64,000 bases of DNA from a virus (lineage: Duplodnaviria; Caudoviricetes), in IMG/VR virus record IMGVR_UViG_2600255075_000001, positions 1-64,000 of that record. One strand, given 5' to 3'. Within the stretch, counting starts at the first letter, position 1; every line of letters starts with the position of its first letter. Made by a program: the position numbers and the translations under genes. Under the pieces are notes generated by a model. That model was not told the origin of the DNA. It did no database searches and saw nothing but the letters and a program-made list of their open reading frames with translations. Shown here one piece after another: positions 166-63,413 of this stretch.

Positions 166-262
166 ATAGTCTCTCCTTTACTGTTATATGAAATTGATAT
201 TTTATTGCTTCATTGGCTTTGTATAATTGAGTATTAGCGAGCATTAAGCAGTACTAGCGAGT

Positions 263-3200
263 TCATTTTTTGATTTTACAACTCACTAGCCATTCATCGA
301 ATTGGTCTGCTGATTTTACCCACTTTCCATCAACCAACTTGCTTTTTGGCCTCATTTCAGTTTGCGATAGGTGTAAAAGGTCGCCAATTTTAAAATTATC
401 ATTACCGTTGCTGTAGAACTTCTTTTTATCTACTTTAATTTGTTTTTCAATACCCCTCATAAGATCGTATATTGTTAATCTTGGAGTATATTTCTTATCC
501 ATATCTACAATACAATACCAGTCTATTGCATTTGGATATCTAATACCTGCATATCCCATTAACTCTTTTTCATAAAGAACAGTTTCGTGGATTGGATATC
601 TTTTTTCCTTAAGACTACTTCTTATCTCCGCCTCTCTTTTCTTTTTCATATTTAATCTTTTTAGTTTAGTTATATCTTTCAAAGTTTTCTTGTAAGCGTC
701 TTTCCCTCCGACAAACTCATCATATATACTAATGAGTTCTTTGTTTTCACCAAATTCCTTGAAAAAATTGAGTCGTATTAATATTTGTAATTGCCTTGAG
801 TCGCACGTTGTATTCTCAAGGATATCTACCAGTAGATCACAAAAAGATTCATATGTATTATCTCTTAATTCATAAAGTTCCTTGGCTATTTGTTCATTGA
901 GATACTTGATTGACTTAATGCCTTTATAAATTGCATTTTCTTCTTTTGCCATCATATATTCGCTTACAGATTTTCTAAACATAATTGGTTTAATACTTAC
1001 TCCTATGCTATTTGCATATTCAGCAATTTTACCCACCTTGTCTAGATTCTCTGCAATATTCAGCATTACAGTTAGAAATTCTAAAGAATAGTAATGTCTT
1101 AAATAGCCGTTTCCATATCCAATATGACTATATGGGTTAGAGTGATTATCTGAAAACCCGTAATACTGAGCATCCAATATTACCTGTAAGAAAGGCTCAA
1201 TGATTGCTTTTGAATGTTCTTCATCTTCAGAAAATTTTTCTCTCATGTTACTGACGAACCGATCTCGAATTAATGGGATGTACTGTTCAGTTCCTTCCTT
1301 TTTCGAAAGTCCTCGACGTACAGTATCGCTTTCAGCCATAGAGTAACCACAAAAATCAACCAAGAAGTTCATGATTTGCTCTTGGCTAATTAGATAGCCA
1401 TGAGTATTATTTAATGAGTTGTTGAGTTCTTTGTGTCCATGATCTTTAAAGATACCGGCAGCTAGACTTTCTCTATAGGACGATCCAGAAGGACGAATTG
1501 CACCGTTACCGATTGAGAAGAGCTCAATTAAACTGATTTCAGGATTAACTTCTCTAATCTTCTTTATTGTCTCTTGTTTGAACAGTTCTTTGTAATAACG
1601 GTGTGCCGATTCGCTCTCCCACTGAAATATGCCTAACCCCGAATCTTTCATGGATTCCCATACTACCTCGTCATTCACATTCATATTGTCAGGAACCAAA
1701 CGTTCAATACCTGCAAGCCTACAAGTCTCATTAATAATCTCAATGTTGTCTAAGCCGAGTATATCCAGCTTCACAAAATTGCAGCTATCCAGCTCTTTCA
1801 TGTTTACTTGGCTCACAGGATACTTGCTTTCTTTTGTATAGCATAGACCAATTGAATCATCTAAGTTCACTGGTGAAACTACATATCCCGAAGGGTGGGA
1901 GCCCACACTTATGATTACTCCACTTACCAAATCTACATATTTAAATAGTTCAGGATATTTTTTTCTGTAGCTATCAGGTATACAATCTTTCTTTTCTTCA
2001 TCTTTAAAGACGGCTTTTGCAGTTTCGTCAACCAATGAAGCGTCTAACTGAAGTGCGCGGCCAACCTCTCTAATTGCCCCCTTTAAAGCAACGGTGTTGA
2101 ATGTGATAATTTCAGAAAAGTGAATGTTTGGAATGCTTGCTACATAATCAATAACTTCTTGTCTTCGCGAAGGTGGAAAATCGATATCTATATCTGCAAG
2201 ACTTATTCGTTCAGGATTCAAAAACCGGAAAAAATTTAATTTATGCTTTATGCTATCCATTTCGGTAATTCTCAATAAATAAGCAATTAAGCTTCCATTA
2301 ACTGAGCCTCGACCATATCCTGGATAAATCTCTTTGGTATAACAGTAGTCGATAATATTTTTCTGCAAAAGCATGTAGTCAATCGTTCCCAATTTCTTAT
2401 ATGTATCAAACTCTTCCCTAACTCTCTCGTAGTATCTCTTTTTCTGTTCGGAAGGCAGTTTATTAGTGCCTCTCGCGACAATCCCTTCGTTTATTTTCTC
2501 TTTAAAGACTTTTTCAGAGTCTTCGTATAGCTTTGGATATTTCGGGCTAGAGTCAAGGGTAAACTCTTCAACCATATCTGCCATTACGTTTGTGTTATGA
2601 ATAGCTTCTAAATAAGCATGACGAGGAATAGCAGACTGTTCTTCAAATTTATCAACCAGTTCTTCATAACTTTTAAAAGTTAAATCAAATAAATCCTCAT
2701 CGCCGTATGTTGCTCCCTTAGCTTTCATCATTATCTTTCTGGCTGCTGCATGATCTTGGTTCAATGAGTGTGTATCAGTTCCAGCAATGAGAGGTATACC
2801 GGTTGATTTTGAAAAATCAAAAAGCCATTGATTGAATTTTATTTGTTCTGGATGTAAGTGGTATTGAATTTCTAAAAAAACCCTATGTTTGTTTCTTGTT
2901 AAAAACTCTAAGAGTTTATTAAGCATCGCTGCGTTGTTCTTTTGTAAAGCTCTCCATAGTGGGGACGCTAGGCAGGCAGTTGTCATAATTATATTGTCTG
3001 ATGTATTGATCACTTCATCTAATGACAGTCTAGGGTTAAAGTAATAATGACCATCTTTACGATTGTTAGATAACGTTGTTAGTTTATTTAATTCTTTCAC
3101 TCCATACTCATTCTTTGCAATAAGCATGTAGTGCATATTGTCTCGGATTAAACCTTTTTCTCTATCTATGTATTCGGTGACGTAAATCTCATTGGCATGT

Positions 3201-3430
3201 ATGTATTTCATACCGTATTTTTCGACAGTCTGTTTTTTCTTGATCCAATTCATAATCGATCCGTGTTCTGAAAAGCAGAAAGAATTCATTTCTAATTCGT
3301 TTGCCACTTTTAAATACTGTTCAAACTTAGTTGTAGAATCCATTGACATACTCGTTGTCGGATTACTTAGATCGCTGTGGCAATGGTAGACCGTATAATT
3401 ATCTCTCAGCAATATCGCCTCCTTAATCAT
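263..3430 (-). CDS. dnaE: DNA polymerase III alpha subunit (DnaE, SPbeta YorL-like)
   Basis: N-terminal PHP domain (HCHSD, SEHG, GTDTH), GRGS motif, catalytic DIDIDF, KLDILGL. True start probably TTG at 3412 behind AAGGAGG. Confidence 0.95.
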   Translation of the reverse strand: MIKEAILLRDNYTVYHCHSDLSNPTTSMSMDSTTKFEQYLKVANELEMNSFCFSEHGSIMNWIKKKQTVEKYGMKYIHANEIYVTEYIDREKGLIRDNMHYMLIAKNEYGVKELNKLTTLSNNRKDGHYYFNPRLSLDEVINTSDNIIMTTACLASPLWRALQKNNAAMLNKLLEFLTRNKHRVFLEIQYHLHPEQIKFNQWLFDFSKSTGIPLIAGTDTHSLNQDHAAARKIMMKAKGATYGDEDLFDLTFKSYEELVDKFEEQSAIPRHAYLEAIHNTNVMADMVEEFTLDSSPKYPKLYEDSEKVFKEKINEGIVARGTNKLPSEQKKRYYERVREEFDTYKKLGTIDYMLLQKNIIDYCYTKEIYPGYGRGSVNGSLIAYLLRITEMDSIKHKLNFFRFLNPERISLADIDIDFPPSRRQEVIDYVASIPNIHFSEIITFNTVALKGAIREVGRALQLDASLVDETAKAVFKDEEKKDCIPDSYRKKYPELFKYVDLVSGVIISVGSHPSGYVVSPVNLDDSIGLCYTKESKYPVSQVNMKELDSCNFVKLDILGLDNIEIINETCRLAGIERLVPDNMNVNDEVVWESMKDSGLGIFQWESESAHRYYKELFKQETIKKIREVNPEISLIELFSIGNGAIRPSGSSYRESLAAGIFKDHGHKELNNSLNNTHGYLISQEQIMNFLVDFCGYSMAESDTVRRGLSKKEGTEQYIPLIRDRFVSNMREKFSEDEEHSKAIIEPFLQVILDAQYYGFSDNHSNPYSHIGYGNGYLRHYYSLEFLTVMLNIAENLDKVGKIAEYANSIGVSIKPIMFRKSVSEYMMAKEENAIYKGIKSIKYLNEQIAKELYELRDNTYESFCDLLVDILENTTCDSRQLQILIRLNFFKEFGENKELISIYDEFVGGKDAYKKTLKDITKLKRLNMKKKREAEIRSSLKEKRYPIHETVLYEKELMGYAGIRYPNAIDWYCIVDMDKKYTPRLTIYDLMRGIEKQIKVDKKKFYSNGNDNFKIGDLLHLSQTEMRPKSKLVDGKWVKSADQFDEWLVSCKIKK

Positions 3431-3459
3431 ATATTATCACATTCTTTTATTTTATTCAA
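3431..3459 (-). promoter_or_regulatory. SigA-type promoter for dnaE
   Basis: TTGAAT-N17-TAATAT with TGn extension on the minus strand. Confidence 0.6.
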
Positions 3460-3545
3460 CTGAATTTCATTTGTCTGTTTCTCTAATTTAACCTTTACAT
3501 TATTACCAATATATAGTACATTCAATACGGTTCAATAATCATCTC

Positions 3546-3575
3546 AAAAGCCCTGTGAAATGTACTCACAGGGCT
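3546..3575 (-). terminator. Intrinsic terminator
   Basis: 10-bp stem agccctgtga/tcacagggct followed by a short T-run on the minus strand. Confidence 0.7.
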
Positions 3576-3752
3576 CCCCTATTTCCTATAAAAACATAGT
3601 TTTATCGTCTAAATTTTTCATCGTCCTGTTGTAAAATCCTGTATTTTGCATGATGAACTTCTCTTTTTTCATCATGATAAAACTTTGACCTGTTGTGATA
3701 TCCTACCCAATATAAATGGTACATCTTTTTAATTCTAACTAATAAATCATTA

Positions 3753-6497: not shown

Positions 6498-6599
6498 ACT
6501 TGCGAACAATGTTGACTTGAGACAACAGACAACAATATTAGAGATTGGAGTCCGAATGGACTCCTTTATTCTTTCTTAAAGAGTAATAAAACATGAATT

Positions 6600-6818
6600 T
6601 TATAGTCCAATTATATTTGCCGAATGCTTGTCTGTGCTCAACACTTTAACCAAACCGCTGTCTCTCATCTCGTCCAAAACAGTCTCTGTAAACTTATACT
6701 TCATTTCATTTATTAGATAAATTTGGTTAAATAACGGTTTAATTACTCGCGGCTCTCTACCGCAGTAACATCTACTTATGAAGGCTGCAGAGGCTGGTGA
6801 AATTTTATACTCACTCAT
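6600..6818 (-). CDS. Hypothetical protein (72 aa, MSEYKISP...)
   Basis: ATG at 6818 immediately after the thyA stop; its stop overlaps the palindrome at 6586. Confidence 0.6.
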   Translation of the reverse strand: MSEYKISPASAAFISRCYCGREPRVIKPLFNQIYLINEMKYKFTETVLDEMRDSGLVKVLSTDKHSANIIGL

Positions 6819-12405: not shown

Positions 12406-12498
12406 TTGCTTTAAACCTTTTCAGCGGATAAAATAACAGTTTTATTGCCTAAATAGCTATAAAAAAGCTTGTAGGTATAACGTTTTTAAAATTGTCTT

Positions 12499-14740: not shown

Positions 14741-14875
14741 TACGTTATTTATTCATTTCTCCAGGCACACTAGTCTGGAGTTTCTGTTTTTTACGGAAGT
14801 GTTAGCCATGTTGCAAGGATGCGAATTCATTCATCCGAGCATATGGCCCCTCTTTCTTTCCATAAAAGATTGATT

Positions 14876-15148
14876 TTATTGGTCCGTATCAAAGACTCTT
14901 CTTCTTCCTCGGTCATAATTGTCTAGCGGGTCTGAAATAAATCTACCGTTCTTGTCGCGCACTTTTACTAAATAGTCCATCCAATTTTTTGGCATTAACT
15001 CGGTTCGCCAATTTGTATCATCGACCTCTTCGAGCAATTCAACAAATTTAATCTGCCATTCCATAGGCATAGATTGGAGAACAGTACGAGGCAAAACTAG
15101 ATAGTTTGCATAGGACAGCCCAAAATAACTATGAATATCTTGGTTCAT
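14876..15148 (-). CDS. Hypothetical phage protein
   Basis: ORF (FGLSYANYLVLPRTVLQSMP); stop overlaps palindrome 14862. Confidence 0.7.
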   Translation of the reverse strand: MNQDIHSYFGLSYANYLVLPRTVLQSMPMEWQIKFVELLEEVDDTNWRTELMPKNWMDYLVKVRDKNGRFISDPLDNYDRGRRRVFDTDQ

Positions 15149-15621: not shown

Positions 15622-15855
15622 AAATCAGCCTCCCTTTTGTAAAATTATTCATTTCAAATACTCTTAACCTAATTTCATTTTCACATTGATGTAGAAAACA
15701 ATATCTTCATAACTGAAATTCTCTGTAATTGCAGGATGCATGTAATACTTCCAAGCTTTTTTAAATGTACAATTAAATATAGCCGCCTGATTAGCTAATG
15801 TGTCAGCAACTTTAGAGATCTCAAGCACACTCACTCCTCCTATGAAATTAAACTT

Positions 15856-16200
15856 TTATTCATTAATTCTCAGATTTAATCTATTTCTTTGAGAATTGTC
15901 CAACCCAAACCGAATCGCTTCTTCAAGGCTTCCTGTTACTTCCGCACTTCCCCACGCCTGACAGTCCCAACCTGTATAGTCGCAGCCTGCATCAATAATC
16001 GCGTACCTGCCATCTTTAAGTTTGAAAATACCAATCCAATTAGACGTATCGTTCTCTCCGTCATCCATTGCGATAATTTCAACAACATCTTCCCTACTAA
16101 ATGGCCTCGTAGATACTGGTTTTGCAAAGTGAACAGTAAATACTGAATTAGCGTAGCCGAATGCTTCCTTCCAATCATATGTATTGATTTCTTCTAACAT
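15856..16200 (-). CDS. Hypothetical protein
   Basis: ORF bracketed by palindromes 15842 and 16214; AGGAG RBS. Confidence 0.75.
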   Translation of the reverse strand: MLEEINTYDWKEAFGYANSVFTVHFAKPVSTRPFSREDVVEIIAMDDGENDTSNWIGIFKLKDGRYAIIDAGCDYTGWDCQAWGSAEVTGSLEEAIRFGLDNSQRNRLNLRINE

Positions 16201-16230
16201 TTCATCGTCTCCTATAAAATGAACTTTTTA

Positions 16231-16473
16231 TCAACTAACAGTTCTAATATGCTTGACAGGTATACCGCCAATTATCTCACGTTGCTTAGCCTCAAATGAT
16301 GTATTGTCATTTACTAATAAGCGAATTTTTATATAACCATATTCATTTTCTTCTTCTACAATTTCACAAATTCGTCCCCTATGCCTTCTCCACCAATTCA
16401 GAGGTGAATCACAACTAATAATAACAGCCTTTTTCATATACCTGTTTTCATCCTGACTTTTTGAGATCTTCAA
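16231..16473 (-). CDS. Hypothetical protein
   Basis: ORF in minus-strand gene run. Confidence 0.55.
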   Translation of the reverse strand: MKISKSQDENRYMKKAVIISCDSPLNWWRRHRGRICEIVEEENEYGYIKIRLLVNDNTSFEAKQREIIGGIPVKHIRTVS

Positions 16474-17831: not shown

Positions 17832-17863
17832 TTGGGCACCTCATGAAATGTAATTTTTATCGT

Positions 17864-18283: not shown

Positions 18284-18432
18284 CGTTTCGCTCTCCTTAT
18301 GAAATCCGTATTTTATTCTCCCTTAAATAAGTCGATTGCCTCTTCTTTGATTTCCTCAACACTCTTTTGTAAACCTCTTTCTTCTGCTGCACCAAGAACC
18401 TCATTTAATGACTTCATGTGTATTCGTATAAT

Positions 18433-20222: not shown

Positions 20223-20370
20223 AATAATGTGGGTAAGCCAATCAACTGAAAGAACAGCCGCAACAAATATAACAAAATTCGTAATTAAAAAGGTAATTAT
20301 ATTTTTCCCTCTTTTCTTGTATTTTCTTTAAAGATAAAACCTACATTTTATTGGTTAGCTGCTTTCATAT

Positions 20371-21869: not shown

Positions 21870-22279
21870 TTTGTTGTATGGACTACTTCCTCAATATCTG
21901 GATGGTTGAAGAAGAAAAAGTATGGAGAAAAACTCTTGTCTTGACTTACAGTCCATTGAAAGCCCTTAGTAGAAACCGAAACATAATCCCATGCAATGAG
22001 TGATTTTGGACTGACGATCCGCCTGCCGATAATAATCCACTCCTGCTGTTCATCGTTATCTGGAGCGACCTTCACAACACTTCCGATATTAAGTAAGCAC
22101 TCTTCCATTTGATCCTCCGTTTTGTTATTTATTTTTTCGTGTTTATATTTACTGTTTGGATGTTCTAATTGCCATTGAGCGTAATATATCTCATCTTCTA
22201 TTCGCTCTTGTTCAGATAAATAATTCATCAAATCGCTGACTCTCTCAAATTTAATCCTGTATCCATACGATAAAATCAA
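21866..22279 (-). CDS. DUF4176-like protein
   Basis: LLNIGSVVKV...IIGRR...WDY...FFFNHPDIEEVVH resembles DUF4176; probable start MEECLL behind GGAGG. Confidence 0.65.
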   Translation of the reverse strand: MILSYGYRIKFERVSDLMNYLSEQERIEDEIYYAQWQLEHPNSKYKHEKINNKTEDQMEECLLNIGSVVKVAPDNDEQQEWIIIGRRIVSPKSLIAWDYVSVSTKGFQWTVSQDKSFSPYFFFFNHPDIEEVVHTTK

Positions 22280-22319
22280 TATTTTATATGTATTTCTAAA
22301 AACATCTTCTTACATATTT

Positions 22320-25514: not shown

Positions 25515-25577
25515 GATTAGCCAATCACCTCCTCATAAAATAGTTATTTTATTGCTTGGGTAATCGCAATTTCAACA

Positions 25578-27128: not shown

Positions 27129-27372
27129 CTAGCAACTCCTTATTTATAATTCCCTATTTCTTTGGTCGCTCTATTTCTTCAAGATACATCAGCTCATTTG
27201 TTTGAAACGCAAACTTATCAAAAATATTCCAATTTGCTTTTAGTAGATGGTTTGATGCTTCTCTGAAATTAGAGTAGTTGTCCATGTTGAAGTCTAAAGT
27301 TTTTCCACTCTTAAATGTCGCTTTGATTCTAACTATTCAATTCGTCTCCTTTTAGCAAATAAAATTCCTATT

Positions 27373-32821: not shown

Positions 32822-32861
32822 TTGGCAACCTCCAATAAAAATGAATTTTTATTGCATATAA

Positions 32862-35655: not shown

Positions 35656-35922
35656 TTATTCACAAAAAGGCTTTCCGCTCTGGTCGTAAATCTGTGCTAA
35701 TGAACCGATACCATTCCTATCGGAAGTGCTTAGTGCAAAATAACATCCAGTCTTTTGATGTTTTACTGTAATTAATGACGCAGTGTCTGCTTGATCTACA
35801 GATACTACCGAAAATTCTTGACTATCAACTGTCGCCCGTTTAATTTCGGTTTCGGTCTGACCACAAGCAGCTATTAAGACTGATAGAAGACTTAGTACGG
35901 ATACTATAAAATTTTTTTTCAT
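35656..35922 (-). CDS. Putative lipoprotein
   Basis: Signal peptide with lipobox IAAC; H..TGCY motif. Confidence 0.7.
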   Translation of the reverse strand: MKKNFIVSVLSLLSVLIAACGQTETEIKRATVDSQEFSVVSVDQADTASLITVKHQKTGCYFALSTSDRNGIGSLAQIYDQSGKPFCE

Positions 35923-36497: not shown

Positions 36498-36893
36498 TTA
36501 CATCTCCTTGTTCGTACTGACTTATTCAATAAATTTTCCACTTCATTGTCTACAGTTTTCTTGTCATCCTCAAGATAATGGTCTTATTGTCGTAACCAAC
36601 AATCTTCATTCGCGCTGCTGCTCTCAATATCTCGATGGCATCTTCGTGGCACATAGGATAGGCATTAAGAATTTGTGCATACTCATTGGCATGCCCGATA
36701 GTACTCTTGAAACGATCTGATCGTGCTAAACCATTGATTAATTCCCTTCTTTAGGCTGAAACCTTCAATGTTACCATCCTTATCTAAGTGGATATCAGTA
36801 ATTTCGACCTCGCGACCATCGATAATGTCATAAAAATTTTGATCGATTTTATAATCCACTTCTATCGCTCCTATAAAAATCCGATTTTATCTC

Positions 36894-38721: not shown

Positions 38722-38794
38722 ATTTATTCAATATGTTGTACTGCCGTCGATGAATCTTCTTTGTATCGTTTTACTTGCCTATAAAATCAAGTTT

Positions 38795-39412
38795 TTATTG
38801 TCTGAATTCCTTGTTGACGATCTTTGCTATATCTTTATATATCTCCTCAACTGATCTTAATCCATCAACAATCGCTTTAGCCGGTGCAGAGTAATTTGTA
38901 GATACATTTTTATAATTGCTACGTACTCTCGTGAGTAAGCCCAAATCTGATTCATATCTGTCATTTTCACCATGCTTTCCTTTTCTTTTCATGCTCTCTT
39001 CTGCTGGAATGTCGATTATAATGTCTAGATCAGGCTTCCGCATATACTTCTGTAATTCCATGATCCAACGTCCATCTCGCCCGTTAGCAAGCCCATAAGC
39101 GACTTGACAGAGGCTATACCTATCCAGGATTAAGAATTCATATTTCTCATTCTCTAGCTCAGTAAACCAGTCCTGCTGAGCCTGCTTATCCGCAGCCATA
39201 ATCAATTCAATCGTCTCTGCAGATACTTCCCATTCTTTACGTAACCACTTCATAATCAGCTCACCAGTTGGTGTTTCGTAGCGGTGGAACTCGCTCGACA
39301 TTACTTTAAATCCTTCGCTACGTAATCTCTCAGTAAGCAATTTTGATTGGGTGTGCTTTCCGCTTTTGTCTAATCCACCAATGCTGATGATCTTCATTTT
39401 ATTATTGTTCAA
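38795..39412 (-). CDS. tmk: Thymidylate kinase (dTMP kinase)
   Basis: P-loop GLDKSGKHTQ, ILDRY, KPDLDIIID. Confidence 0.88.
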   Translation of the reverse strand: MNNNKMKIISIGGLDKSGKHTQSKLLTERLRSEGFKVMSSEFHRYETPTGELIMKWLRKEWEVSAETIELIMAADKQAQQDWFTELENEKYEFLILDRYSLCQVAYGLANGRDGRWIMELQKYMRKPDLDIIIDIPAEESMKRKGKHGENDRYESDLGLLTRVRSNYKNVSTNYSAPAKAIVDGLRSVEEIYKDIAKIVNKEFRQ

Positions 39413-40353: not shown

Positions 40354-40373
40354 CGACTAATGAAATGTTCGTT

Positions 40374-41600
40374 TTATTGATTTAAGGCATTCACAAAATC
40401 TAAAGCTTCTTTAAGTTTTTCTGTATCATCCGATTTTAGAAAATTAACCACTCCGAGCAGTTCTTTCATTTTAGGCGCCACGATATCACTCTTGACCTCG
40501 TTGGCAATATCCTTCAAGGCATTTTTCAGTTCATTATGATAGTCTTCAGCAGTTTTCTCATCTTCATCTTTCAAACTGTCGATCATGTCTTCGGAAAATC
40601 GCTTAGCTTTCTCTTCCAACACTTCAATTTCTTTCTTACGGATATCTTCAAAGGAATCACCTTCGTCAAGTTGTCCTTCAATTGCCTCTTTAAACACCCT
40701 TACATATGTATCAATTCCATACAACTCTTTTTCTGGCAACACTTTAAAGCGTCCACCGGCGATACCAATATAACTAGATTCTCTAAAGTACATATAAGTT
40801 TGTGATTCATGAAACTTCGTAGCAATCTCTTTGCCATTTTTGTTTTCTAGGTTTTTATTTAATTCATTTCCTTCTTTATCTAAAGCTGTAACTTCATTGT
40901 GTAGGCAACAAATTAGATCTGCTTGCGACTGGAATACTTTACGGCAAGTAGTATTCATCATTAGCTCGATTGAGTTATATTTCACGCCATTGACGAGTTC
41001 TGTTGTTTTTTCTTTTGTCCAAGCTAAAAAAATCAAACCGTAGCCTGCAGCCCTTAATGTATCAATTGGGCGTTTAAGCTCGTCATATAGATTATTCCAT
41101 ACATTATCTTTATAAATCTTCGATTCTGATAATTCTTGAATTGATGTGAAATTATTTCCGGGATACTTGTTATTCGCATTAACGATGATATAAGCAGAAG
41201 CGCAATCAATCATTCTGTCAACAGTGTCGAATCCTACCACTTTAGAAATACGAGAAACCTTTGATTCCTGTACTAGCCCAGTTACTATTTCTTGTTTGAA
41301 ATAAATCCACCTGTCTGAATCCATCTCAATATCGGTCTTTATTTTTATCTTACCATTTTTAATTTTTTCTTCTTCTTTTTTATATTCCACCAAATCGATT
41401 TTCGATTTCAGTTTCCACGTTTTATACCCAGGTTCCCAAGCTACAAGCAGTCCTGCTTCTGGTTCGTTAGGGAAAAAGTATTCAATGATTTCCTTCCACC
41501 AACGAGTCTTGCCTGATTTATAATTTCCAGCCGTTAATAAGATATAGGATTGTAAGTCTACCTTTGGAATATTCGCCGTAACGAGATTTCGAAAAGACAA
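40374..41600 (-). CDS. AAA-family ATPase (YorG/Sak4-like)
   Basis: Walker A GNYKSGKT, WEPGY, GFDTVD, AGGRF. Confidence 0.8.
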   Translation of the reverse strand: MSFRNLVTANIPKVDLQSYILLTAGNYKSGKTRWWKEIIEYFFPNEPEAGLLVAWEPGYKTWKLKSKIDLVEYKKEEEKIKNGKIKIKTDIEMDSDRWIYFKQEIVTGLVQESKVSRISKVVGFDTVDRMIDCASAYIIVNANNKYPGNNFTSIQELSESKIYKDNVWNNLYDELKRPIDTLRAAGYGLIFLAWTKEKTTELVNGVKYNSIELMMNTTCRKVFQSQADLICCLHNEVTALDKEGNELNKNLENKNGKEIATKFHESQTYMYFRESSYIGIAGGRFKVLPEKELYGIDTYVRVFKEAIEGQLDEGDSFEDIRKKEIEVLEEKAKRFSEDMIDSLKDEDEKTAEDYHNELKNALKDIANEVKSDIVAPKMKELLGVVNFLKSDDTEKLKEALDFVNALNQ

Positions 41601-42802: not shown

Positions 42803-42937
42803 TTAAAAATATCATTCTCCTTTTATATTAATTTCTTTTACTTTATATGTGCATTTCACTATAAAATTCTTCTTTTATTGCTGCTCTCTTCTCCTTTCTC
42901 AGAGTATCTATATAATCACCATATGGTGTTATTTTAG

Positions 42938-43051: not shown

Positions 43052-43089
43052 CATTTATTTTTATCTTCTTACCCGGGAGTTAATGAAAC

Positions 43090-43554
43090 TCACATTTTAT
43101 CCGCTCTTTGAGTTTTAAACCCTTCGTATCTAGGCAAATATAAGCAATGTAATATTGACTCAATTAAATTTAAAGTAAAGACGCCCAGTTTCGCATCTAT
43201 TTCTATGTCAATTCGATCAACATTGTTTTTAATCCAATCTCCTACTGTTGAACTTGAAAGTGAGTAGAACTCCATTGCCGGATCTAAAATAATTGACTTC
43301 GCGAGATTACTCTGTGAACTCTCCGGATTATAGTGCTGACTATAAAATCTAGCCTTGCTATTGCTTCCTGCTTTCCCTATTTTTAAATAATCTCCATTAA
43401 AGCTAAAAGTATAAACATACATCTTGCCTTGTTTAAAGGTACATTTATGCGGTCTTCCTCTGTTTACTATAGCTATCTGTTCATCGGTTGGATATATATT
43501 GACCTCGTTCAACATCTTATATAAAAGCTGCTTAACATCTTTGTTCATATCCAC
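43090..43554 (-). CDS. GIY-YIG-like protein
   Basis: YVYTF....YLKIGKA.....RF..H and late E motif. Confidence 0.6.
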   Translation of the reverse strand: MDMNKDVKQLLYKMLNEVNIYPTDEQIAIVNRGRPHKCTFKQGKMYVYTFSFNGDYLKIGKAGSNSKARFYSQHYNPESSQSNLAKSIILDPAMEFYSLSSSTVGDWIKNNVDRIDIEIDAKLGVFTLNLIESILHCLYLPRYEGFKTQRADKM

Positions 43555-43592
43555 GAACGATCACTTCCTATAAAAGATTCGTTTTATTAGAT

Positions 43593-44171: not shown

Positions 44172-44191
44172 CGCCCTTTCTCATAAAAGAC

Positions 44192-44476
44192 TCATTTTAT
44201 TTGCTCAATAATTGCTTCCATTTCATTAATGTTATGTTCTAAAATACTTTTCAGTTTATCTAATGATTCATTCTTTGCTTCATTAATATCCTTACTCTTT
44301 AGCTCTATTTTATCTAAATCGAGATATCTCGAACTTAGCAGCCACATGTCAGAACCATAATGAATATGTCTGTGAACCATAATATCAGCCTTATTAATAA
44401 CTGCGGTCCAAGATCTAGGCTCTGTGTCCTTTCTTTTTCTTTGACTATAAGATGTAGTGTCTTTCCATGTAATCAT
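44192..44476 (-). CDS. Hypothetical protein
   Basis: ORF between palindromes 44183 and 44497; AGGAGGAG RBS. Confidence 0.7.
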   Translation of the reverse strand: MITWKDTTSYSQRKRKDTEPRSWTAVINKADIMVHRHIHYGSDMWLLSSRYLDLDKIELKSKDINEAKNESLDKLKSILEHNINEMEAIIEQIK

Positions 44477-44549
44477 ATGTTTCTCCTCCTTATCCGATAA
44501 AAGAATTGTTTTATCGTGTTTCTCCTGTATAAGGTTATTACTGCTCAGC

Positions 44550-45203: not shown

Positions 45204-45242
45204 TAGCTAATCACTTCCCATAAAAGTATTATTTCATCTAAA

Positions 45243-45656: not shown

Positions 45657-45679
45657 CCATTTCCCATAAAATATTTGTT

Positions 45680-46069
45680 TTATTGTCTTTTGTACATTAA
45701 GACGCTCGAAGCCTTATTATCATAATAGAACTTCATATTTCGAGAGTCATCTTTAGACAGCGGTATAAGATGTATTTCAGCCCTGTGTTCATAATCTTTC
45801 TTTTTTAGAGTCCAATCTAGATTGTAATTCACAAAATCATAACCATCGCAGAGTACACATACATCTATGTCACTATCAATATGTGCGCGCCCTGTCACTT
45901 GAGATCCAATAATTAAGACTTCGTCTACAAAATCAAAACTTGCAAGATAATCCGTAAACTTCTTCAAATTGAACCCCTCAGTTGTATTCACTGTCTGTAT
46001 CTCCTTCCGGAAAGTATCATTACTATTTGTAATCCCATAGCCTAACAGAATCCTGGTCAAACTCCTCAA
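45680..46069 (-). CDS. Minimal nucleotidyltransferase (MNT) domain protein
   Basis: VLIIGSQVTG....SDIDVCV. Confidence 0.8.
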   Translation of the reverse strand: MRSLTRILLGYGITNSNDTFRKEIQTVNTTEGFNLKKFTDYLASFDFVDEVLIIGSQVTGRAHIDSDIDVCVLCDGYDFVNYNLDWTLKKKDYEHRAEIHLIPLSKDDSRNMKFYYDNKASSVLMYKRQ

Positions 46070-46205: not shown

Positions 46206-46244
46206 AAGTCATCCTCCTAATGAAATTGTTGTTTTATCGGCCGC

Positions 46245-47024: not shown

Positions 47025-47350
47025 TTATTAATTCCTCCAATGAAATTATCTTTTTATTAGATGGCACAATATAAATCGTATTGATATCATCTAATCGTAA
47101 TTTTTCGAAATCAAATTGTTCGTTCAAATTTTGCCATACATACTAATTCATCAGAGATCCAGAAAATTCCTTTCCCTTTTGATGTTCAAACCTCAGTTCC
47201 TGCAGGAATTTCTCTTTTTAACCTCCGAAATATAGACGACTTATGTATTGATCTTTGTGTTAAATATAATACTTCAAATGATTTTTGTCAATAACTTATA
47301 TACTTTTATTTTATAAATTTGTGAAGCTGCTCACCAGCTTCTAATTGTAC

Positions 47351-50022: not shown

Positions 50023-50045
50023 AAAAATAACCCGACAGGGTTATT
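50023..50045 (-). terminator. Terminator after the mrpR-like gene
   Basis: aataaccc/gggttatt stem overlapping the stop, T-run on the minus strand. Confidence 0.65.
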
Positions 50046-51042
50046 GTTCATACACTTTTATGATCGTTTCAACATTCAAAAAATCCTCTTTAAGTCGGTG
50101 GTAGTTATATACCTCATAACCATTATTCATAACTTTTGATATACCAAACTTCTCACTTATTTCTTCATAATGATCTTTTTTAATTTCTCCATGCTTATCA
50201 TAAAAGCTTTTGGCCATATAGAGCATTCCAGAATTTCTTATTATATATGGCGACAAAACTCTTACCCAATCATCGTTATAACTTTTAACTGCCGCGATTC
50301 TCCGTTGAATCAAAAATTTATCTGCCTTACCATTAGTCTGACTGCGAGTAATAACATTCCTCAATACATAATCGCTCTGTTCTAAGTTAGCCTCTGCTGA
50401 CGATCTCATAGTGGGCTTTAGAATACCATTTTTTTTAATATAGGTCTTTTGATCAAGAGCTTTATACATTAAATTCATAAAATCTGAAGACACGTTGATA
50501 ACTCTCTCGTGTTCGCCGTCTGTTAAAGAAATCAGATTCTCACTCACGATGCTTTGACGCTTCAGATTTAGCAATTCATCGTAGCCACTTTTACCAAAAA
50601 CGCCTTCAAAGATTGCGATTATCGGAAATGCATCTTGAGCATTTACACACACACTAATCATACTATCAATTTCATCTTTTGTATAAAGCGACTTTTTAGA
50701 TATATCTATAAACTTTTTAAAATAATTATTTTCTGCCAGCACATCTAATGGATTAATATTTGTATCTCTCAGGTCCTGTTCTATTCCCCATCTTATATAG
50801 TTCTGGACCATATAAAAGTTCGAGCGGCTGGCATTCAGAGTTGATGGATTTAGGTAATGAAGTAAATTTTCAATCTGATCCAGCGTAAAATTATACAAAT
50901 CTTGCCCATATGTTTCTTCTATTGATTTGGCCCTTGAAAGAATTCTACGCGCTTGGAGTGAAGTAGTCTCTGGCAGAGAGTTTACGTATCTCATTTTTTG
51001 ATACTCGTTAAAATACCCGCCTTCATAAATTTTGTTTGACAT
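50041..51042 (-). CDS. mrpR: YopR/MrpR(SroF)-like lysogeny repressor with tyrosine-recombinase fold
   Basis: SAM-like N-domain (E..YG.DLYNFT..QI..LL), IFEG......ELLNLK lacking the catalytic Arg, IRNSG motif lacking the HxxR His; follows a YopQ-like gene as in SPbeta. Confidence 0.75.
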   Translation of the reverse strand: MSNKIYEGGYFNEYQKMRYVNSLPETTSLQARRILSRAKSIEETYGQDLYNFTLDQIENLLHYLNPSTLNASRSNFYMVQNYIRWGIEQDLRDTNINPLDVLAENNYFKKFIDISKKSLYTKDEIDSMISVCVNAQDAFPIIAIFEGVFGKSGYDELLNLKRQSIVSENLISLTDGEHERVINVSSDFMNLMYKALDQKTYIKKNGILKPTMRSSAEANLEQSDYVLRNVITRSQTNGKADKFLIQRRIAAVKSYNDDWVRVLSPYIIRNSGMLYMAKSFYDKHGEIKKDHYEEISEKFGISKVMNNGYEVYNYHRLKEDFLNVETIIKVYEQ

Positions 51043-51062: not shown

Positions 51063-52397
51063 TCAAGATATCCAACTCTTAATATCAATTTTTTCGAAGT
51101 GATCTTTTACTAACTTTTGCAGACGAGACGAAGCTCCTTTGTTGTAAGTAACCACTTTATCTAGCTCTTTAACTTCTTCAATAATTGTCTCAATGACATT
51201 CTTTATTTTACTAAACGACACATCGTTTTCTTTAAATATTTTTGCAATAACAATGTACCCAATAAACATGCGCGGCTGCCTTAGAAGACTTGTTTTTGTA
51301 TTGAACTCATCATCAAAAACCCCTAGCAAATTGTTGAAGAAGTCTGTTAAATATACCCCAACTTCCTTTGCTTCGAAAGCAGTTTTTGGCTCAAATACCT
51401 GGTCGATTGCATTTGCTAAAATATCTGTAGTCGTGTAATGGCCTGCCAATTCGCTAATCTTTGAACCTGAGGCAATCTTTCCTTTGAGATCGGAATTGAT
51501 CTGTAATTGTTTAACGGCAACATAAGAAACTTTCTCTTGTTTGAGTTGCTCAAGTCGTTCAGTTTTAACTACGTTGATAGTGTTAATTTGACCAAAATAC
51601 TTTTTAGCGGTATCTGTGTCATAAACTCGTATACTCAATATTATATCTTGCTGCAGATCCGGATTAACAGATAAAGCCCTTACTGCTCCTTGAAGTCGGT
51701 GAAATCCATCAAGAATAGAGATGGTAGCTCCTTCCTTAATAGTCAAGACTTTAGATTTTGGATTGTATGTTATCGGATCGAAATCCTCAGAATAGACGTT
51801 TAGAGTAATCATATCAGGCAGATATGTTTCATTTAACATATGTTCTGCAATATCTTTTACGCTTTGCAAATTAACATCTGGTACAGGGACAACCCCATCT
51901 CTTCCCTTTTTATATTTGGCGCTTCTCTGTGTTTCGAAATCGTAAACAATAATCTTGTTATGGTACCATTTTACTGGCTCCGAAATTTTAATTGTAGTAA
52001 CAAAATTTTCATGATCAATTTGTAGCACACTGTTAATCGATATAGGAAGATTAACATCTTTAACTTCCTTGCCTGTATACTTCCTTGCTTCTGATATCTC
52101 ACCTTCAGTAAAATAATTTTCTGCTCTCACTTCGTCAGACCCATCAATTTTAAATACGGCCATTGAGATAAGACAGAGAACAGCGGTATCAATTTCTCCA
52201 AGTAAATTTTCGTTTTTAATAATTTCGTTAAAAAATCCAGAAGGTATGTCATATTCGGATAAATTTTTATTTACTTCCTCAATATTTTTTCTTTTATATT
52301 TTATTCTTTCTATTGCATTAGTCAGATTGCTTTCAAGTTCGCTACGGTCACGCAACATAATAAAAACTCCTTCCTTCATACCACATACTATAGTCAT
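51063..52397 (-). CDS. YopQ(SroE)-like ParB/DndB (DGQHR-type) protein
   Basis: QR motif, ITLN, ILDGFHR, F.QINT; size and position like SPbeta yopQ. Confidence 0.72.
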   Translation of the reverse strand: MTIVCGMKEGVFIMLRDRSELESNLTNAIERIKYKRKNIEEVNKNLSEYDIPSGFFNEIIKNENLLGEIDTAVLCLISMAVFKIDGSDEVRAENYFTEGEISEARKYTGKEVKDVNLPISINSVLQIDHENFVTTIKISEPVKWYHNKIIVYDFETQRSAKYKKGRDGVVPVPDVNLQSVKDIAEHMLNETYLPDMITLNVYSEDFDPITYNPKSKVLTIKEGATISILDGFHRLQGAVRALSVNPDLQQDIILSIRVYDTDTAKKYFGQINTINVVKTERLEQLKQEKVSYVAVKQLQINSDLKGKIASGSKISELAGHYTTTDILANAIDQVFEPKTAFEAKEVGVYLTDFFNNLLGVFDDEFNTKTSLLRQPRMFIGYIVIAKIFKENDVSFSKIKNVIETIIEEVKELDKVVTYNKGASSRLQKLVKDHFEKIDIKSWIS

Positions 52398-52569
52398 TAT
52401 ATCACAGATTGTTGACTATAAATAATAAAAATATACACAGAAATACATCTCATGAAAAGCCTTATTGCTTTGAGATATATCCCTATGTATATTTTCAATT
52501 TAATTAACGTATTATTTTACAATAAAATCTTGTTTTTATAGGTTAATGCTATGAAAGAAGCTCCACGCT

Positions 52570-54336: not shown

Positions 54337-54391
54337 TATACACCTCTCCTTGTCCGATGAAATTGACCTTTTATCTCTATATCATAATGCT

Positions 54392-55117: not shown

Positions 55118-55171
55118 TAGTTTATAGTTCTCCTTTTGCCATTATCGAACAAGTAGATCATCTAATAAAAG

Positions 55172-55591
55172 TCAGTTTTCATCGACTGTACGATTCATAT
55201 ACAAGTCCATTCTAAGCATGTTGAAGATCGCCGAATCACACCTTTCTCCGCTGTATTTTCTGCAAAAACCAAGTAGCAGCGCTTCATCAAAAGTACTTCT
55301 CGACTCATTAAAGAACTTATTATCAACTACGGGGTAAAAAGCTGTTTCTTTACCTTTATTCAATCTCACTTCTGCTTCAACAATCGCTAAATCTTCACTA
55401 ATAATTGTTGTGTTAACTACGCTCCTATAGTCTTTTACAATTAGCTTCTCTATGGATTCCTCTTTCTCCCTTTGTTCCAAAAATGATTTTGCCATACCGT
55501 ATATACGAGATAACTGAAAGCGTCCAGTATCCTTCATTGCCAGCTCTTCAAAGAATTTAGGGATCTCTTCGAATGATAAGTCTTTTAACAT
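55172..55591 (-). CDS. Hypothetical protein
   Basis: ORF between palindromes 55165 and 55619; AAGGAGG RBS. Confidence 0.7.
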   Translation of the reverse strand: MLKDLSFEEIPKFFEELAMKDTGRFQLSRIYGMAKSFLEQREKEESIEKLIVKDYRSVVNTTIISEDLAIVEAEVRLNKGKETAFYPVVDNKFFNESRSTFDEALLLGFCRKYSGERCDSAIFNMLRMDLYMNRTVDEN

Positions 55592-55625
55592 TAAACTACC
55601 TCCTTGGATATTATTCTTATGAAAT

Positions 55626-55898
55626 TCAAGTTTTATCAGTTTTTAATAACTCAGCAAGTTTATAAATGTCTTCCTTGAGGAGGACCAACTCGCATAATTT
55701 CTTCTCCTTTTTATCTGCACCAAGGGTCATGACATTCGCAATAAAGTCTTTTTCATGCGAAGTATTTACAATTTCCATCCATCTTGGGGATACTTCACAA
55801 ATCAAAGCTTTTGCGCCCAGTTCATTCTTCTTTCTTTGATAAAAACCTACTGGAAATCTGATAATATTATCATCCATTTTAGGCCCTCCTAACTCCAA
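55626..55898 (-). CDS. Hypothetical protein
   Basis: ORF between palindromes 55619 and 55903. Confidence 0.65.
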   Translation of the reverse strand: MELGGPKMDDNIIRFPVGFYQRKKNELGAKALICEVSPRWMEIVNTSHEKDFIANVMTLGADKKEKKLCELVLLKEDIYKLAELLKTDKT

Positions 55899-55926
55899 AA
55901 AAATAAAACTAGTATTTTATTGGTTA

Positions 55927-56915: not shown

Positions 56916-56998
56916 CTAAAATCATAAAATCTCCATTTTATCTTCTTCTTTAGAGCTCTTTTTTAGCTTCCATCCACAAGTAAATTATTTTTATATTC

Positions 56999-57481: not shown

Positions 57482-57551
57482 CCCTTATAAAATCAGTTTT
57501 TTATTAGATTGTTTAGCACTGCGCTTCCGCGGTTATCAATATGTTAGTTTC

Positions 57552-58310: not shown

Positions 58311-58335
58311 ATTCCCTCTCTCTTTCTTGATGAAA

Positions 58336-58863
58336 TCAGACTTTTATTTGCTCGGCCAACTCTTTAAATTTCAGTAATAATTCTCTTGAATGCTCTAGTT
58401 GTTCTTCTAAAACGCCGTTGCTGCCTTCGATTTTAAAATGAAGTCCATTTATAATCCAATCAATCGACACACCATAGATAGAAGCAAGTTTAGATATGGT
58501 CAATAAATCGGGCTCACTAACATTGTTTTCATATCCGCTTATGGTTTTGTTATTTATACCTGAGAGCTGGGAAACCTCTCTTTGAGACAGTCCTTTAAGT
58601 TCTCTAGATTTTTTAAGTCTAAGTGATATTTCCTCTTTCTTAGGTGCCACTATTTTTTCTTCTTTTAATTGACGGCCAAACAAATAATCTAGCGTAACAT
58701 TGTAGAAATCAGCTACTTTAATTATAAATTTAAAATCAGGCTCTCTAATATCGTTTTCGTATCCTTAATACGTAGTACGAGCGATATTCAAAGTTTTTGC
58801 AAGATCGCCCTGTGATAAACGTATTGATTCTCTTAAATATCGAAGTCTTTCGCCAATCGACAT
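58336..58863 (-). pseudogene. Tandem XRE-HTH regulator interrupted by an in-frame TAA
   Basis: ATG 58863 gives MSIGERLRYLRESIRLSQGDLAKTLNIARTTY*GYENDIREPD...; TAA at 58765-58767, frame continues into the second HTH (58336-58683). Confidence 0.8.
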
Positions 58864-60481: not shown

Positions 60482-60553
60482 GATTATTGATCGTCCTTTC
60501 GTTTTTGTGAATGAAATTGCTTTTTCATTTCTCGTTGCTTCTTCTAGTCTATT

Positions 60554-61584: not shown

Positions 61585-61624
61585 TTCAGTTCATCCTCCC
61601 TCCTATAAAATCGCTCTTTTATTG

Positions 61625-62409: not shown

Positions 62410-62428
62410 TTTTCACCTCATAAAAGAC

Positions 62429-62689
62429 TTATTTCATCGTAATTGCTTCGACAATTAACCGACATGAATTATCATAATGTGCTTGGGCTAATTCCTTGCT
62501 TTTCTCTAAAGTGTGAACGTCTCTTCCAATATCTTTACCATCGAACCAGATCATATAAGTGTCATTATTTCCTTTAGAAATGAGATAATGACTTTTCTTA
62601 ATTCCGAAGTCAACCCATGACTCGTGTTTATGAATCGAAGTTGATTTAAATTCCAATTTTTTAAACATAATAATTCGTCTCCTATTCAT
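62429..62689 (-). CDS. Hypothetical protein
   Basis: ORF between palindromes 62420 and 62697. Confidence 0.6.
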   Translation of the reverse strand: MNRRRIIMFKKLEFKSTSIHKHESWVDFGIKKSHYLISKGNNDTYMIWFDGKDIGRDVHTLEKSKELAQAHYDNSCRLIVEAITMK

Positions 62690-62718
62690 ATTCTGAATGA
62701 AATACTTCTTTCATTTGG

Positions 62719-63063
62719 CTATATTACTTTCCGATATTGATATCCTGTAGGTGAATTGCCCACATATTCAAAACAAAACTTTCGGTTAGCCAAATTAATC
62801 TCTGTTACTGCACCTTTTTGGAATCCAGATGATTTAAGTTGTTCTATGAAATTTGGATTATGAATTATATCTGGATCGCTCTTATCATCAATAACAATTT
62901 CAAAACGTTTCAGTTGATCTGGAAGTTCATTTACTTCTTCCCAATAGTCAAGTGCAATCAATGCTCCATTTCCAATTCCTGCTTCATTGCAAGCATTCGC
63001 AATATTTGTGCCGATTACATACTCTTCCTTGTCAAATCTCCAGACTAACTTATATATTTTCAT
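62719..63063 (-). CDS. Hypothetical protein
   Basis: ORF between palindromes 62697 and 63090; GAGGAGGAG RBS. Confidence 0.7.
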   Translation of the reverse strand: MKIYKLVWRFDKEEYVIGTNIANACNEAGIGNGALIALDYWEEVNELPDQLKRFEIVIDDKSDPDIIHNPNFIEQLKSSGFQKGAVTEINLANRKFCFEYVGNSPTGYQYRKVI

Positions 63064-63103
63064 TTACTACTCCTCCTCTGAATAAGCCGATAAAAGAATC
63101 CTT

Positions 63104-63310
63104 TCATCGTATTACATTAATTCCAAAATCATTTATCCATTCCAAATATCCAGAAGATGCTTCTTGTGCATAGATTAAGTTACATTTTGTTCCCTTCACA
63201 TCTAAGTAAGTCTTAGCCTTGTTTTCGGCCTCTTGCTTTGTTAAAGCTTCCACAGGCATTGCAGCTCCATCATATCCAACATGCCAAATCACATTGAAAC
63301 ATCTCCCCAT
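63104..63310 (-). CDS. Hypothetical protein
   Basis: ORF between palindromes 63090 and 63309. Confidence 0.55.
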   Translation of the reverse strand: MGRCFNVIWHVGYDGAAMPVEALTKQEAENKAKTYLDVKGTKCNLIYAQEASSGYLEWINDFGINVIR

Positions 63311-63413
63311 GAAATAATCTTTTCATCGTATTAAATTCTGATTTTGCTCTTGAGTCCTAGCGAAACGTAATATAGGTGTATGCTCTTACATTTTTAAAGA
63401 AATCATTTGATTA

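Follow-up and report, generated by a model that had tools for sequence, protein, structure and literature searches.

The question raised by this locus is why one short palindrome, ATRAAA-N6-TTTYAT, recurs dozens of times between the genes of a single phage, and which protein reads it. We analyzed the first 64,000 nucleotides of the virus record IMGVR_UViG_2600255075_000001 (the window; positions 18148-82147 of contig C30 in genome G000). A sequence-only reading had reported at least 46 copies of the palindrome at gene and module junctions and had proposed either integron- or pdif-like gene cassettes or an operator array for an integrase-fold repressor such as the MrpR-like protein encoded here. 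Our analysis suggests that the palindrome is a conserved, putative protein-binding junction element that serves as a crossover point for module exchange, a reading to which we give a probability of roughly 45%.

A palindrome with one fixed spacing at gene junctions

We found 46 exact matches to ATRAAA-N6-TTTYAT in the window, spread from 188 to 63326 and each forming an 18-bp dyad, at the positions that the sequence-only reading had given (Table 1). Comparison with shuffled sequence and with host DNA bore out its estimate of less than one chance copy per 64 kb: 100 dinucleotide-preserving shuffles of the window contained a mean of 0.22 sites (maximum 5), and only 4 sites lie in the ~6.3 Mb of the genome outside the prophage. 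The genome comprises 6,432,241 bases in 32 contigs, and those of at least 10 kb have ~50-57% G+C. Contig C30 has 33-41% G+C from ~17.5 kb to ~150-152 kb, between flanks of 50-56%, and this ~135-kb stretch is identified, from its composition and its genes, as an SPbeta-like prophage. Of the 73 sites in the whole genome, 70 are on this contig and 69 inside the prophage.

The spacing between the arms is exact. When the strict arms were scanned with spacings from N0 to N12, N6 gave 69 sites and each other spacing 0-2; everted arms gave 0-4. Because only N6 is enriched, and given the shuffle and host counts, the excess of palindromes is not compositional.

The palindrome also recurs in other phages. 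Counts are given here as motif / reversed-pattern control, with strict sites defined as ATRAAA-N6-TTTYAT and core sites as TRAAA-N6-TTTYA. SPbeta (NC_001884) has 14 strict and 36 core sites at gene junctions, with 0-8 at other spacings; for its strict sites the comparison was with 10 shuffles, which held 0-1 perfect-arm copies, instead of a reversed control. The related phage phi3Ts has 34 core palindromes. Strict sites number 24/0 in Geobacillus phage E3, 21/0 in Tsamsa, 10/0 in a Staphylococcus SPbeta-like phage, 3/0 in Sundance and 2/0 in Lactococcus phage 949. Core sites number 42/10 in E3, 29/5 in Tsamsa, 20/10 in the Staphylococcus phage, 14/1 in KKP_3916, 29/4 in phi36 and 26/12 in BcoS-136, and show no clear enrichment in Sundance (7/5), 949 (12/6), SEP9 (13/12) and Ldl1 (4/5). 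Five control phages were not enriched either: SPO1 (0), A511 (0; control 1), 0305phi8-36 (0), K (2, a single terminal-repeat site counted twice) and G (6/7). A full-text literature search, which did not reach Lazarevic et al. 1999, found no description of the palindrome; what it found on SPBRE, a repeated element of SPbeta, concerns a different element.

Within the window the sites occupy a well-defined place. On the sense strand, a typical site comes after the upstream gene's stop codon or overlaps it, and the distance to the next start codon is 9-29 nt for most sites, which sit immediately 5' of a GGAGG-like ribosome-binding site (RBS). The overlap with stop codons and the adjoining RBS had been noted in the sequence-only reading. 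The stop codon is inside an arm at 10 of the 46 sites (so marked in Table 1), and also at 6586 if the open reading frame (ORF) 6600-6899 is a real gene. Genes were called with a crude heuristic based on the longest ORF and the RBS, which misses some small genes, so all junction counts are approximate. The larger modules described earlier are indeed bracketed, with no strict site between 188 and 3588, 6586 and 12428, 22270 and 25535, 40360 and 42861, or 47040 and 52522. At module ends (3588, 6586, 40360, 52522) the site keeps next to the upstream stop codon, and a terminator-like hairpin and promoter-like sequence come after it in that order; at 18299 and 47040 it is kept with the RBS, far from the upstream stop. 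Sites also adjoin a tRNA-Met gene and a CRISPR-like array (clustered regularly interspaced short palindromic repeats), and thus the element is not tied to protein-coding signals or to translation. Sites are denser in the early region (7.35 per 10 kb) than in the late region (1.98).

Could such sites arise without any function of their own, as a by-product of stop codons, AT-rich intergenic DNA and RBS spacing? In its favour, both arms contain a stop codon (TRA) and genes are separated by short, AT-rich gaps, but this explanation does not predict enrichment at N6 alone, the near absence of sites from shuffles or their absence from AT-rich control phages, and most sites do not use the stop codon of the arm. 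We regard it as very unlikely, close to negligible.

The arms themselves vary independently. Across the 69 sites, the R and Y positions of the two arms show no covariation (37/10/16/6 table, Fisher p = 0.76), and 16 or 10 of the 69, depending on the strand, carry A-C mismatches between the arms. There is therefore no visible base-pairing constraint, which argues against a base-paired RNA or a cruciform and favours two half-sites that are read independently.

Outside the 6-bp arms, base composition is biased only at positions -2, -1 and at spacer position 6. Among the 57 minus-strand-region sites, position -1 is a purine in 51, position -2 is C in 31 and spacer position 6 is A in 38; the mirror positions give 31 (-1), 24 (-2) and 23 (spacer 6), and no -35 or -10 consensus is present around these sites. 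The sense-strand form of the element is C-R-ATRAAA-NNNNN(A)-TTTYAT. Sites between co-directional genes point along the gene direction in 35 cases and against it in 6, with 16 ties; these features were defined on the same 57 sites, and the plus-strand set alone is independent (5 agree, 1 disagrees, 3 ties).

This polarity, together with the distance of most sites to the start codon, would fit an RNA-level signal, for instance a site of processing in the polycistronic mRNA or an enhancer of translation immediately before the Shine-Dalgarno sequence. Such a signal is nevertheless improbable. The arms do not covary and carry the A-C mismatches described above, any stem would consist of six A-U pairs, and exact dyad symmetry is unexpected for a signal that acts in single-stranded form. 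In addition, sites flank the tRNA gene and the CRISPR-like array, and some precede terminators.

Homology breakpoints between relatives

To compare related phages, a check suggested in the sequence-only reading, we used a prophage that resides in a second species of this genus (G003; contig C2, ~2,305,000-2,406,000). The two share mosaic homology at 68-98% identity, and the relative has 39 strict sites in its low-GC stretch (40 in the 160 kb examined). We took as breakpoints the ends of BLASTN blocks of at least 150 bp over window coordinates 1-77000 (n = 52).

Twenty of the 52 block ends fall on a strict site (within 6 bp) and 8 near a site-bearing junction. Conversely, among the sites inside blocks, 18 of 25 lie within 12 bp of a block end, and four blocks have sites at both ends (28267-28469, 38778-40378, 55164-55637 and 61593-62438). 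In the alignments at block ends, the entire site, spacer included, is common to both genomes and one flank is unrelated. Junctions with a site are breakpoints more often than junctions without one (26/56 vs 16/86; odds ratio 3.8, Fisher p = 0.0006), also when only gaps of at least 18 bp are considered (24/54 vs 13/61; odds ratio 2.95, p = 0.0097). Of the matching sites, 6 of 25 are degenerate in G003 and 2 of 21 in the G000 prophage.

Other comparisons point the same way. Between SPbeta and phi3Ts, breakpoints occur at 10 of 20 site junctions and at 17 of 81 site-less ones (p = 0.021; with the gap filter, 10/20 vs 16/56, p = 0.10). Homology with a further genome (G006) begins exactly at 58330, and contigs from the metagenome run X3 change in likeness at 55903, 57483 and 60529. 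In the laboratory hybrid Hyb2phi3Ts-SPbeta, both crossovers lie within stretches of 1.4 kb and 4.9 kb that are identical in the parents, and thus they do not inform on whether sites were used; 3 of the 4 ends of these stretches fall at core sites.

From these alignments, module exchange between related phages probably occurs at palindrome-marked places. The cassette proposal of the sequence-only reading therefore holds as a description, in that homology blocks start and stop on sites and site junctions are enriched in breakpoints, but an integron- or pdif-like system does not follow from it; breakpoints also fall elsewhere. No inversion, deletion or excised circle was seen in the sequencing data compared, all of them contigs. 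Several observations weigh against our reading, and in particular against a dedicated cassette system. Of the block ends with G003, 16 are at junctions without a site and 8 inside genes, so that 24 of 52 lie away from site-bearing junctions. Three indels (at 14862, 20334 and 32835) have just one of their two ends at a site. Matched sites look better conserved in their spacers than the blocks at large (9 differing positions in 150, vs ~13%; p = 0.004), but this value is biased, as spacers that match are favoured at the ends of BLAST blocks. Within the prophage, two sites share a spacer no more often than expected by chance (2 pairs, with 2.0 expected), which gives no sign of selected addresses, and we rejected the idea of a spacer address code. 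Finally, site-bearing junctions may simply separate independent genes, where exchange would be tolerated anyway.

One of the pairs with the same spacer (TCAGTT) is formed by the palindromes at 57487-57504 and at C30:143145-143162. The two places share ~106 bp at 85-88% similarity further on, with differing cargo between (1413 vs 862 bp), and by this arrangement the pair is a segment exchanged within one prophage.

The G003 prophage is without ~31 kb of late and structural genes (87630-118949 on the scale of the window) and without a 12.8-kb stretch that the G000 prophage has (68727-81504). Because of these missing parts it is probably defective.

Candidate readers and comparison with known systems

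In the reading that we prefer, SPbeta-like siphoviruses would have the sites throughout their lineage as a junction element, located after the stop codon of a gene and ahead of the RBS, terminator or promoter of its downstream neighbour. The element would act at the DNA level, as two inverted half-sites each read on its own by a protein, the likeliest readers being protomers of one phage Xer-like tyrosine-recombinase-fold protein. It would thereby form an identity island at gene junctions and hence a point of module exchange: with the whole site, spacer and all, conserved at dozens of junctions, homology between related phages would start and stop there. The mechanism within the site could be short-homology recombination or an exchange of strands at the spacer. 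An Xer-fold reader is our preferred guess because the dyad is dif-like and the prophage has two Xer-like genes.

Besides the MrpR-like gene, the prophage carries three genes of the Phage_integrase family, namely YopP/SroE-like, YomM-like and lambda-Int type. The YopP/SroE-like protein is of Xer type with an HxxK motif. The YomM-like protein is also of Xer type; its best solved relatives are XerA proteins, and aligned to XerA it shows the R, HxxR, H and Y motifs of the R-K-H-R-H/W-Y catalytic set, the four motifs that the comparison covered. YopP-like genes are present in 95 phage records and YomM-like genes in 153. In the portions of bioRxiv 10.1101/2025.11.27.690993 used here, SroE is described as a second repressor that is needed for lysogeny, with its mode of action and targets left open.

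The protein side adds its own difficulties for an Xer-fold reader. SPbeta YomM and both aligned YopP-like proteins (of this prophage and of SPbeta) have HxxK instead of HxxR. Phages can have recombinase genes without the palindrome: 949 encodes both Xer-like proteins, Sundance a YopP-like and an MrpR-like protein, and SEP9 and Ldl1 a YomM-like protein, yet all four have the unenriched core counts given above. Phyletic profiling of the three integrase-fold proteins against the motif singled out no reader. YopP/SroE of SPbeta (L002:28691-29767) and of phi3Ts (L050:21293-22354) are only 34% identical and the palindrome is the same, and only 6-8 bp per arm are conserved, compared with 10-11 bp in dif sites. 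The phi3Ts YopP has HxxR where SPbeta has HxxK, so the catalytic competence of YopP may differ between the two phages.

We also considered and set aside three other assignments. The YopQ/DndB-like protein is unlikely as the reader, as Tsamsa has 21 sites but yielded no relative. A promoter or terminator of the YonO RNA polymerase was rejected because YonO relatives are missing from most motif-rich phages: a tally by organism of the 39 records with relatives held none from Tsamsa, E3 or the Staphylococcus, Mammaliicoccus and Alicyclobacillus phages. YonO starts at one site upstream of yonK, according to the portion of PMC5467207 used. A pairing of the YomM-like gene with an adjacent site was rejected as inconsistent among phages. 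In this prophage (at 2 bp), SPbeta, E3 and SEP9 the gene has a strict site no more than ~500 bp away. None was found within 650-700 bp of it in Tsamsa, AM1, nattely, Lactobacillus P1 and Basilisk, within 170 bp in Ldl1, or near it in the Staphylococcus SPbeta-like phage.

The likeness to Xer/dif systems (difH/XerH, difSL/XerS and archaeal dif/XerA, as far as described in the sections of PMC5357621 consulted) is close in geometry. Both have inverted arms around a 6-bp centre, within the 6-8 bp of such sites, inner arms like ATGAAAA or CCGAAAA (difH has AGTTATGAAAA as its left arm, and one arm of difSL is TTTCCGAAAA; PMC5357621) and Xer-like genes in the same genome. The tyrosine-recombinase-site geometry claimed in the sequence-only reading is thus found, with only N6 enriched. 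However, dif is present as one site per replicon with arms of 10-11 bp, whereas the prophage has 69 sites with 6-8 conserved bases per arm. A multi-site dif-like system, in which an Xer-fold protein would exchange strands at ~35-70 junction sites of SPbeta-like phages, is a bold extension of our reading that we consider unlikely. Were it true, each site would keep its own 6-bp centre, co-infecting or resident relatives could swap genes or modules between stop codon and RBS, and the phage accessory genome would have an integron-like engine.

Integrons and pdif modules offer further parallels. attC sites are imperfect palindromes of 57-141 bp with R and L boxes, used by the IntI integrase in folded single-stranded form, and pdif sites are 28 bp long and alternate in orientation on Acinetobacter plasmids. 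Like these, the palindromes bracket single genes or small modules. Unlike attC, they are 18 bp long and show no attC-like structure; unlike pdif, they share one polarity and do not alternate.

Another parallel is with the promoter-early stem-loops (PeSLs) of T4-type phages, which the portion of Arbiol et al. 2010 (PMC2839356) used here describes as repeated between non-essential genes, where insertions, deletions and replacements end. The palindromes are likewise short, conserved and repeated, and the indels and replacements of relatives end at them too; in our reading, their role as identity islands for exchange would match the way in which PeSLs act. A PeSL, however, combines a sigma70-like promoter with a terminator stem-loop, whereas the palindrome is a strict 18-bp dyad without a promoter consensus or a G+C stem, and its arms are A/T only and do not covary.

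Is the palindrome instead the operator of MrpR, the SPbeta repressor? Ten SPbeta genes are named as MrpR ChAP-seq peaks in the sections of PMC10516654 available to us, where a 15-bp motif is equated with SPBRE; our comparison covers these ten, and weaker ChAP-seq signals lie outside it. We derived SPBRE from the SPbeta sequence and found that all 10 target genes are preceded by TAGACAAA.A.AAAWAATATGTATA (also written TAGACAAA..AATATGTATA and TAGACAAA..AAWAATATGTATA), which spans the whole conserved promoter TAGACA-N17-TATAAT with a fixed spacer, for example at yorZ. One SPBRE example in NC_001884 is at 116149-116190, and the yorM copy lies within the annotated N-terminus of yorM. The two elements are alike in being repeated in the same phage family and in involving an integrase-fold protein. 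SPBRE is nevertheless a different sequence, asymmetric, promoter-spanning, bound by a monomer and present at ~10 genes, whereas the palindrome is a dyad that does not overlap early promoters, having no -35/-10 consensus and mostly adjoining an RBS. We therefore dropped the identification of the palindrome with SPBRE or the MrpR operator, as the ten published target genes carry the SPBRE box and not the palindrome. For SroF of phi3T, the accessible part of bioRxiv 10.1101/2025.11.27.690993 gives a 26-bp asymmetric box that is bound as a monomer, with two A-tracts read by shape. SPbeta and phi3T have differing SroF boxes and share the palindrome (36 and 34 core copies, the latter counted in phi3Ts), and therefore the palindrome is not the published MrpR/SroF operator. 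The earlier proposal of an operator array for the MrpR-like protein is, on these two grounds, not supported.

A narrower version holds that the palindromes are operators of the prophage's own MrpR/SroF-like master repressor, read by a monomer as ~21-bp polar sites. The gene is in the window, MrpR-like genes are present in all the motif-rich phages tested (E3, Tsamsa, the Staphylococcus SPbeta-like phage, KKP_3916, phi36, BcoS-136 and SPbeta) and absent from 949, SEP9 and Ldl1, and no repeated box of the SPBRE or operator kind turned up when the prophage was scanned for sigma-A promoters with extended -10 patterns. The two A-tracts of the phi3T SroF box would also suit such a reader. Still, the ten SPbeta genes carry SPBRE in a genome that has 36 core palindromes, the SPbeta and phi3T boxes differ with the palindrome the same, and Sundance has an MrpR-like gene without enrichment. 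The MrpR-like protein is probably not the reader of the palindrome, and we hold this version at long odds.

The main rival to our reading is an operator or roadblock array, in which a phage protein other than MrpR, SroE/YopP being one candidate, would bind at every early-region junction and keep the lysogen silent or free of transcriptional read-through. Breakpoints would in that case coincide with sites only because gene junctions carry conserved islands of identity. We consider this possible but somewhat unlikely. The higher density of sites in the early region fits it, and selection acting directly on each copy accounts for 69 strict copies more readily than selection for evolvability. The polarity of the sites relative to transcription, seen in the minus-strand set and by 5 to 1 with 3 ties in the plus-strand set, also agrees with a roadblock, although it may partly reflect the neighbouring purine-rich RBS and its features were defined on the 57 sites counted. 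At module ends the site precedes a terminator, which leaves little to block. Immunity operators normally differ between phages of differing immunity. The same palindrome, however, is found across phages of differing immunity specificity and hosts of several genera (SPbeta, phi3Ts, E3, Tsamsa, Staphylococcus phages and this prophage share it), and YopP, as noted, is poorly conserved between SPbeta and phi3Ts. The requirement of SroE for lysogeny, with its action left open (bioRxiv 10.1101/2025.11.27.690993, in the portions used), speaks for this rival, as does the position of the sites in short intergenic gaps, which they share with the stoperators of Cluster A mycobacteriophages. Stoperators, in the excerpts of PMC9283540 and PMC6550527 that we used, are likewise dozens of short intergenic sites with an orientation bias, but they are asymmetric, bound by a monomeric immunity repressor and different between immunity groups.

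Both SPbeta and phi3T, which are among the best-studied temperate Bacillus phages, carry the element. It offers a handle on how these phages of 120-170 kb can reshuffle their large accessory genomes and leave genes intact, and on the role of the conserved Xer-like proteins of the family, including SroE. If the palindromes are true recombination sites they would represent a new kind of cassette system, and if they are operators, a family-wide silencing array.

Features of the window and neighbouring genes

The 46 palindromes and the two genes most relevant to the operator question are listed in Table 1.

Table 1. Palindromes and selected genes in the window. Every palindrome is an exact 18-bp match to ATRAAA-N6-TTTYAT, with strand given as (.); blocks are stretches of homology with the G003 prophage.
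Feature	Position	Strand	Observation
Palindrome ATGAAATTGATATTTTAT	188..205	.	upstream of the end of the DNA pol III alpha-like gene
Palindrome	3588..3605	.	stop in arm; terminator-like hairpin and extended -10 follow in sense; strict in G003
Palindrome	6586..6603	.	exact start of G003 homology block
Palindrome	12428..12445	.	within G003 block; strict in both genomes
Palindrome	14862..14879	.	G003 block start; 456-bp indel adjoins outer edge; stop in arm
Palindrome	15842..15859	.	stop in arm, RBS at 8 nt; strict in G003
Palindrome	16214..16231	.	G003 block end at 16218, within site
Palindrome	17843..17860	.	next start codon at 11 nt
Palindrome	18299..18316	.	adjoins RBS; upstream stop 116 nt before
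Palindrome	20334..20351	.	meeting point of two G003 blocks; 240-bp G003 insertion at edge
Palindrome	22270..22287	.	G003 block start 6 nt ahead of site
Palindrome	25535..25552	.	within G003 block; identical in both genomes
Palindrome	27359..27376	.	stop in arm
Palindrome	28268..28285	.	start of G003 block 28267-28469
Palindrome	28452..28469	.	end of G003 block 28267-28469; degenerate in G003
Palindrome	30384..30401	.	between two + strand genes
Palindrome	31675..31692	.	convergent junction; stop in arm
Palindrome	32835..32852	.	G003 block end; 753-bp indel adjoins
Palindrome	33813..33830	.	G003 block end; same spacer in both genomes
Palindrome	35642..35659	.	G003 block start; 5-bp spacer in G003 copy; stop in arm
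Palindrome	36873..36890	.	RBS directly after
Palindrome	38781..38798	.	start of G003 block 38778-40378; stop in arm
Palindrome	40360..40377	.	end of G003 block 38778-40378; terminator-like hairpin follows in sense; stop in arm
Palindrome flanking tRNA-Met	42861..42878	.	G003 block start 6 nt ahead of site
Palindrome flanking tRNA-Met	43083..43100	.	exact match
Palindrome	43570..43587	.	RBS after site
Palindrome	44183..44200	.	exact match; gene junction
Palindrome	44497..44514	.	exact match; gene junction
Palindrome	45220..45237	.	exact match; gene junction
Palindrome	45666..45683	.	stop in arm
Palindrome	46220..46237	.	RBS after site
Palindrome	47040..47057	.	G003 block start 8 nt ahead of site
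MrpR/SroF-like integrase-fold repressor gene	50041..51042	-	Pfam MrpR_N_CB 87 bits and MrpR_C_cat 53 bits
YopQ/DndB-like gene, adjoining MrpR-like gene	51063..52397	-	Pfam DndB; 27.5% identity to SPbeta YopQ
Palindrome upstream of YopQ-like/MrpR-like promoter region	52522..52539	.	G003 block end; extended -10 downstream in sense
Palindrome beside mini CRISPR-like array	54357..54374	.	G003 block end
Palindrome	55165..55182	.	start of single-gene G003 block 55164-55637
Palindrome	55619..55636	.	end of single-gene G003 block 55164-55637
Palindrome	55903..55920	.	X3 contig likeness begins exactly at 55903
Palindrome	56924..56941	.	exact match; gene junction
Palindrome	57487..57504	.	X3 contig likeness begins at 57483; spacer shared with C30:143145 site
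Palindrome	58330..58347	.	exact start of homology with G003 and with G006
Palindrome	60511..60528	.	X3 contig likeness ends at 60529
Palindrome	61605..61622	.	G003 block (61593-62438) start 12 nt ahead of site
Palindrome	62420..62437	.	end of G003 block 61593-62438
Palindrome	62697..62714	.	exact match; gene junction
Palindrome	63090..63107	.	stop in arm
Palindrome	63309..63326	.	exact match; gene junction

Most genes of the window are on the minus strand. In BLASTP comparisons 30 prophage ORFs have SPbeta relatives, including YonO (54% identity), NrdE/F/I, YorL, YopP, YopQ, YopR, YomM and the tape-measure protein; the MrpR-like protein is 28% identical to SPbeta YopR. Pfam matches in the window comprise DNA pol III alpha, a Y-family polymerase, thymidylate synthase, NrdI/E/F, AAA_24 and AgrB, and together with the MrpR-like and DndB-like matches they support the corresponding gene names proposed from the letters alone. 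The primase named there has a weak DnaG-type match, below the Pfam cut-off, and a LytTR regulator is also weakly matched.

Directly downstream of the MrpR-like gene, 47964-49958 (-) encodes an AgrB-like protein, an unassigned protein of 240 aa and a regulator of LytTR type, which together may form an agr-type signalling module; SPbeta has arbitrium nearby. A 105-aa ORF at 54019-54336 (-) matches the N-terminal domain of serine resolvases only. A phage tRNA-Met gene (anticodon CAT) occupies 42937-43011 (-), between the palindromes at 42861 and 43083, and this stretch is 96% identical in G003. The mini CRISPR-like array at 54390-54625 consists of three 32-nt repeats (ATTTCAATCCACGCACCCGTAAGGGGTGCGAC) and one degenerate copy, with ~35-nt spacers. 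Long arrays of this 32-nt repeat exist in genomes of the host's family, for instance at G080:C15:95378-102165.

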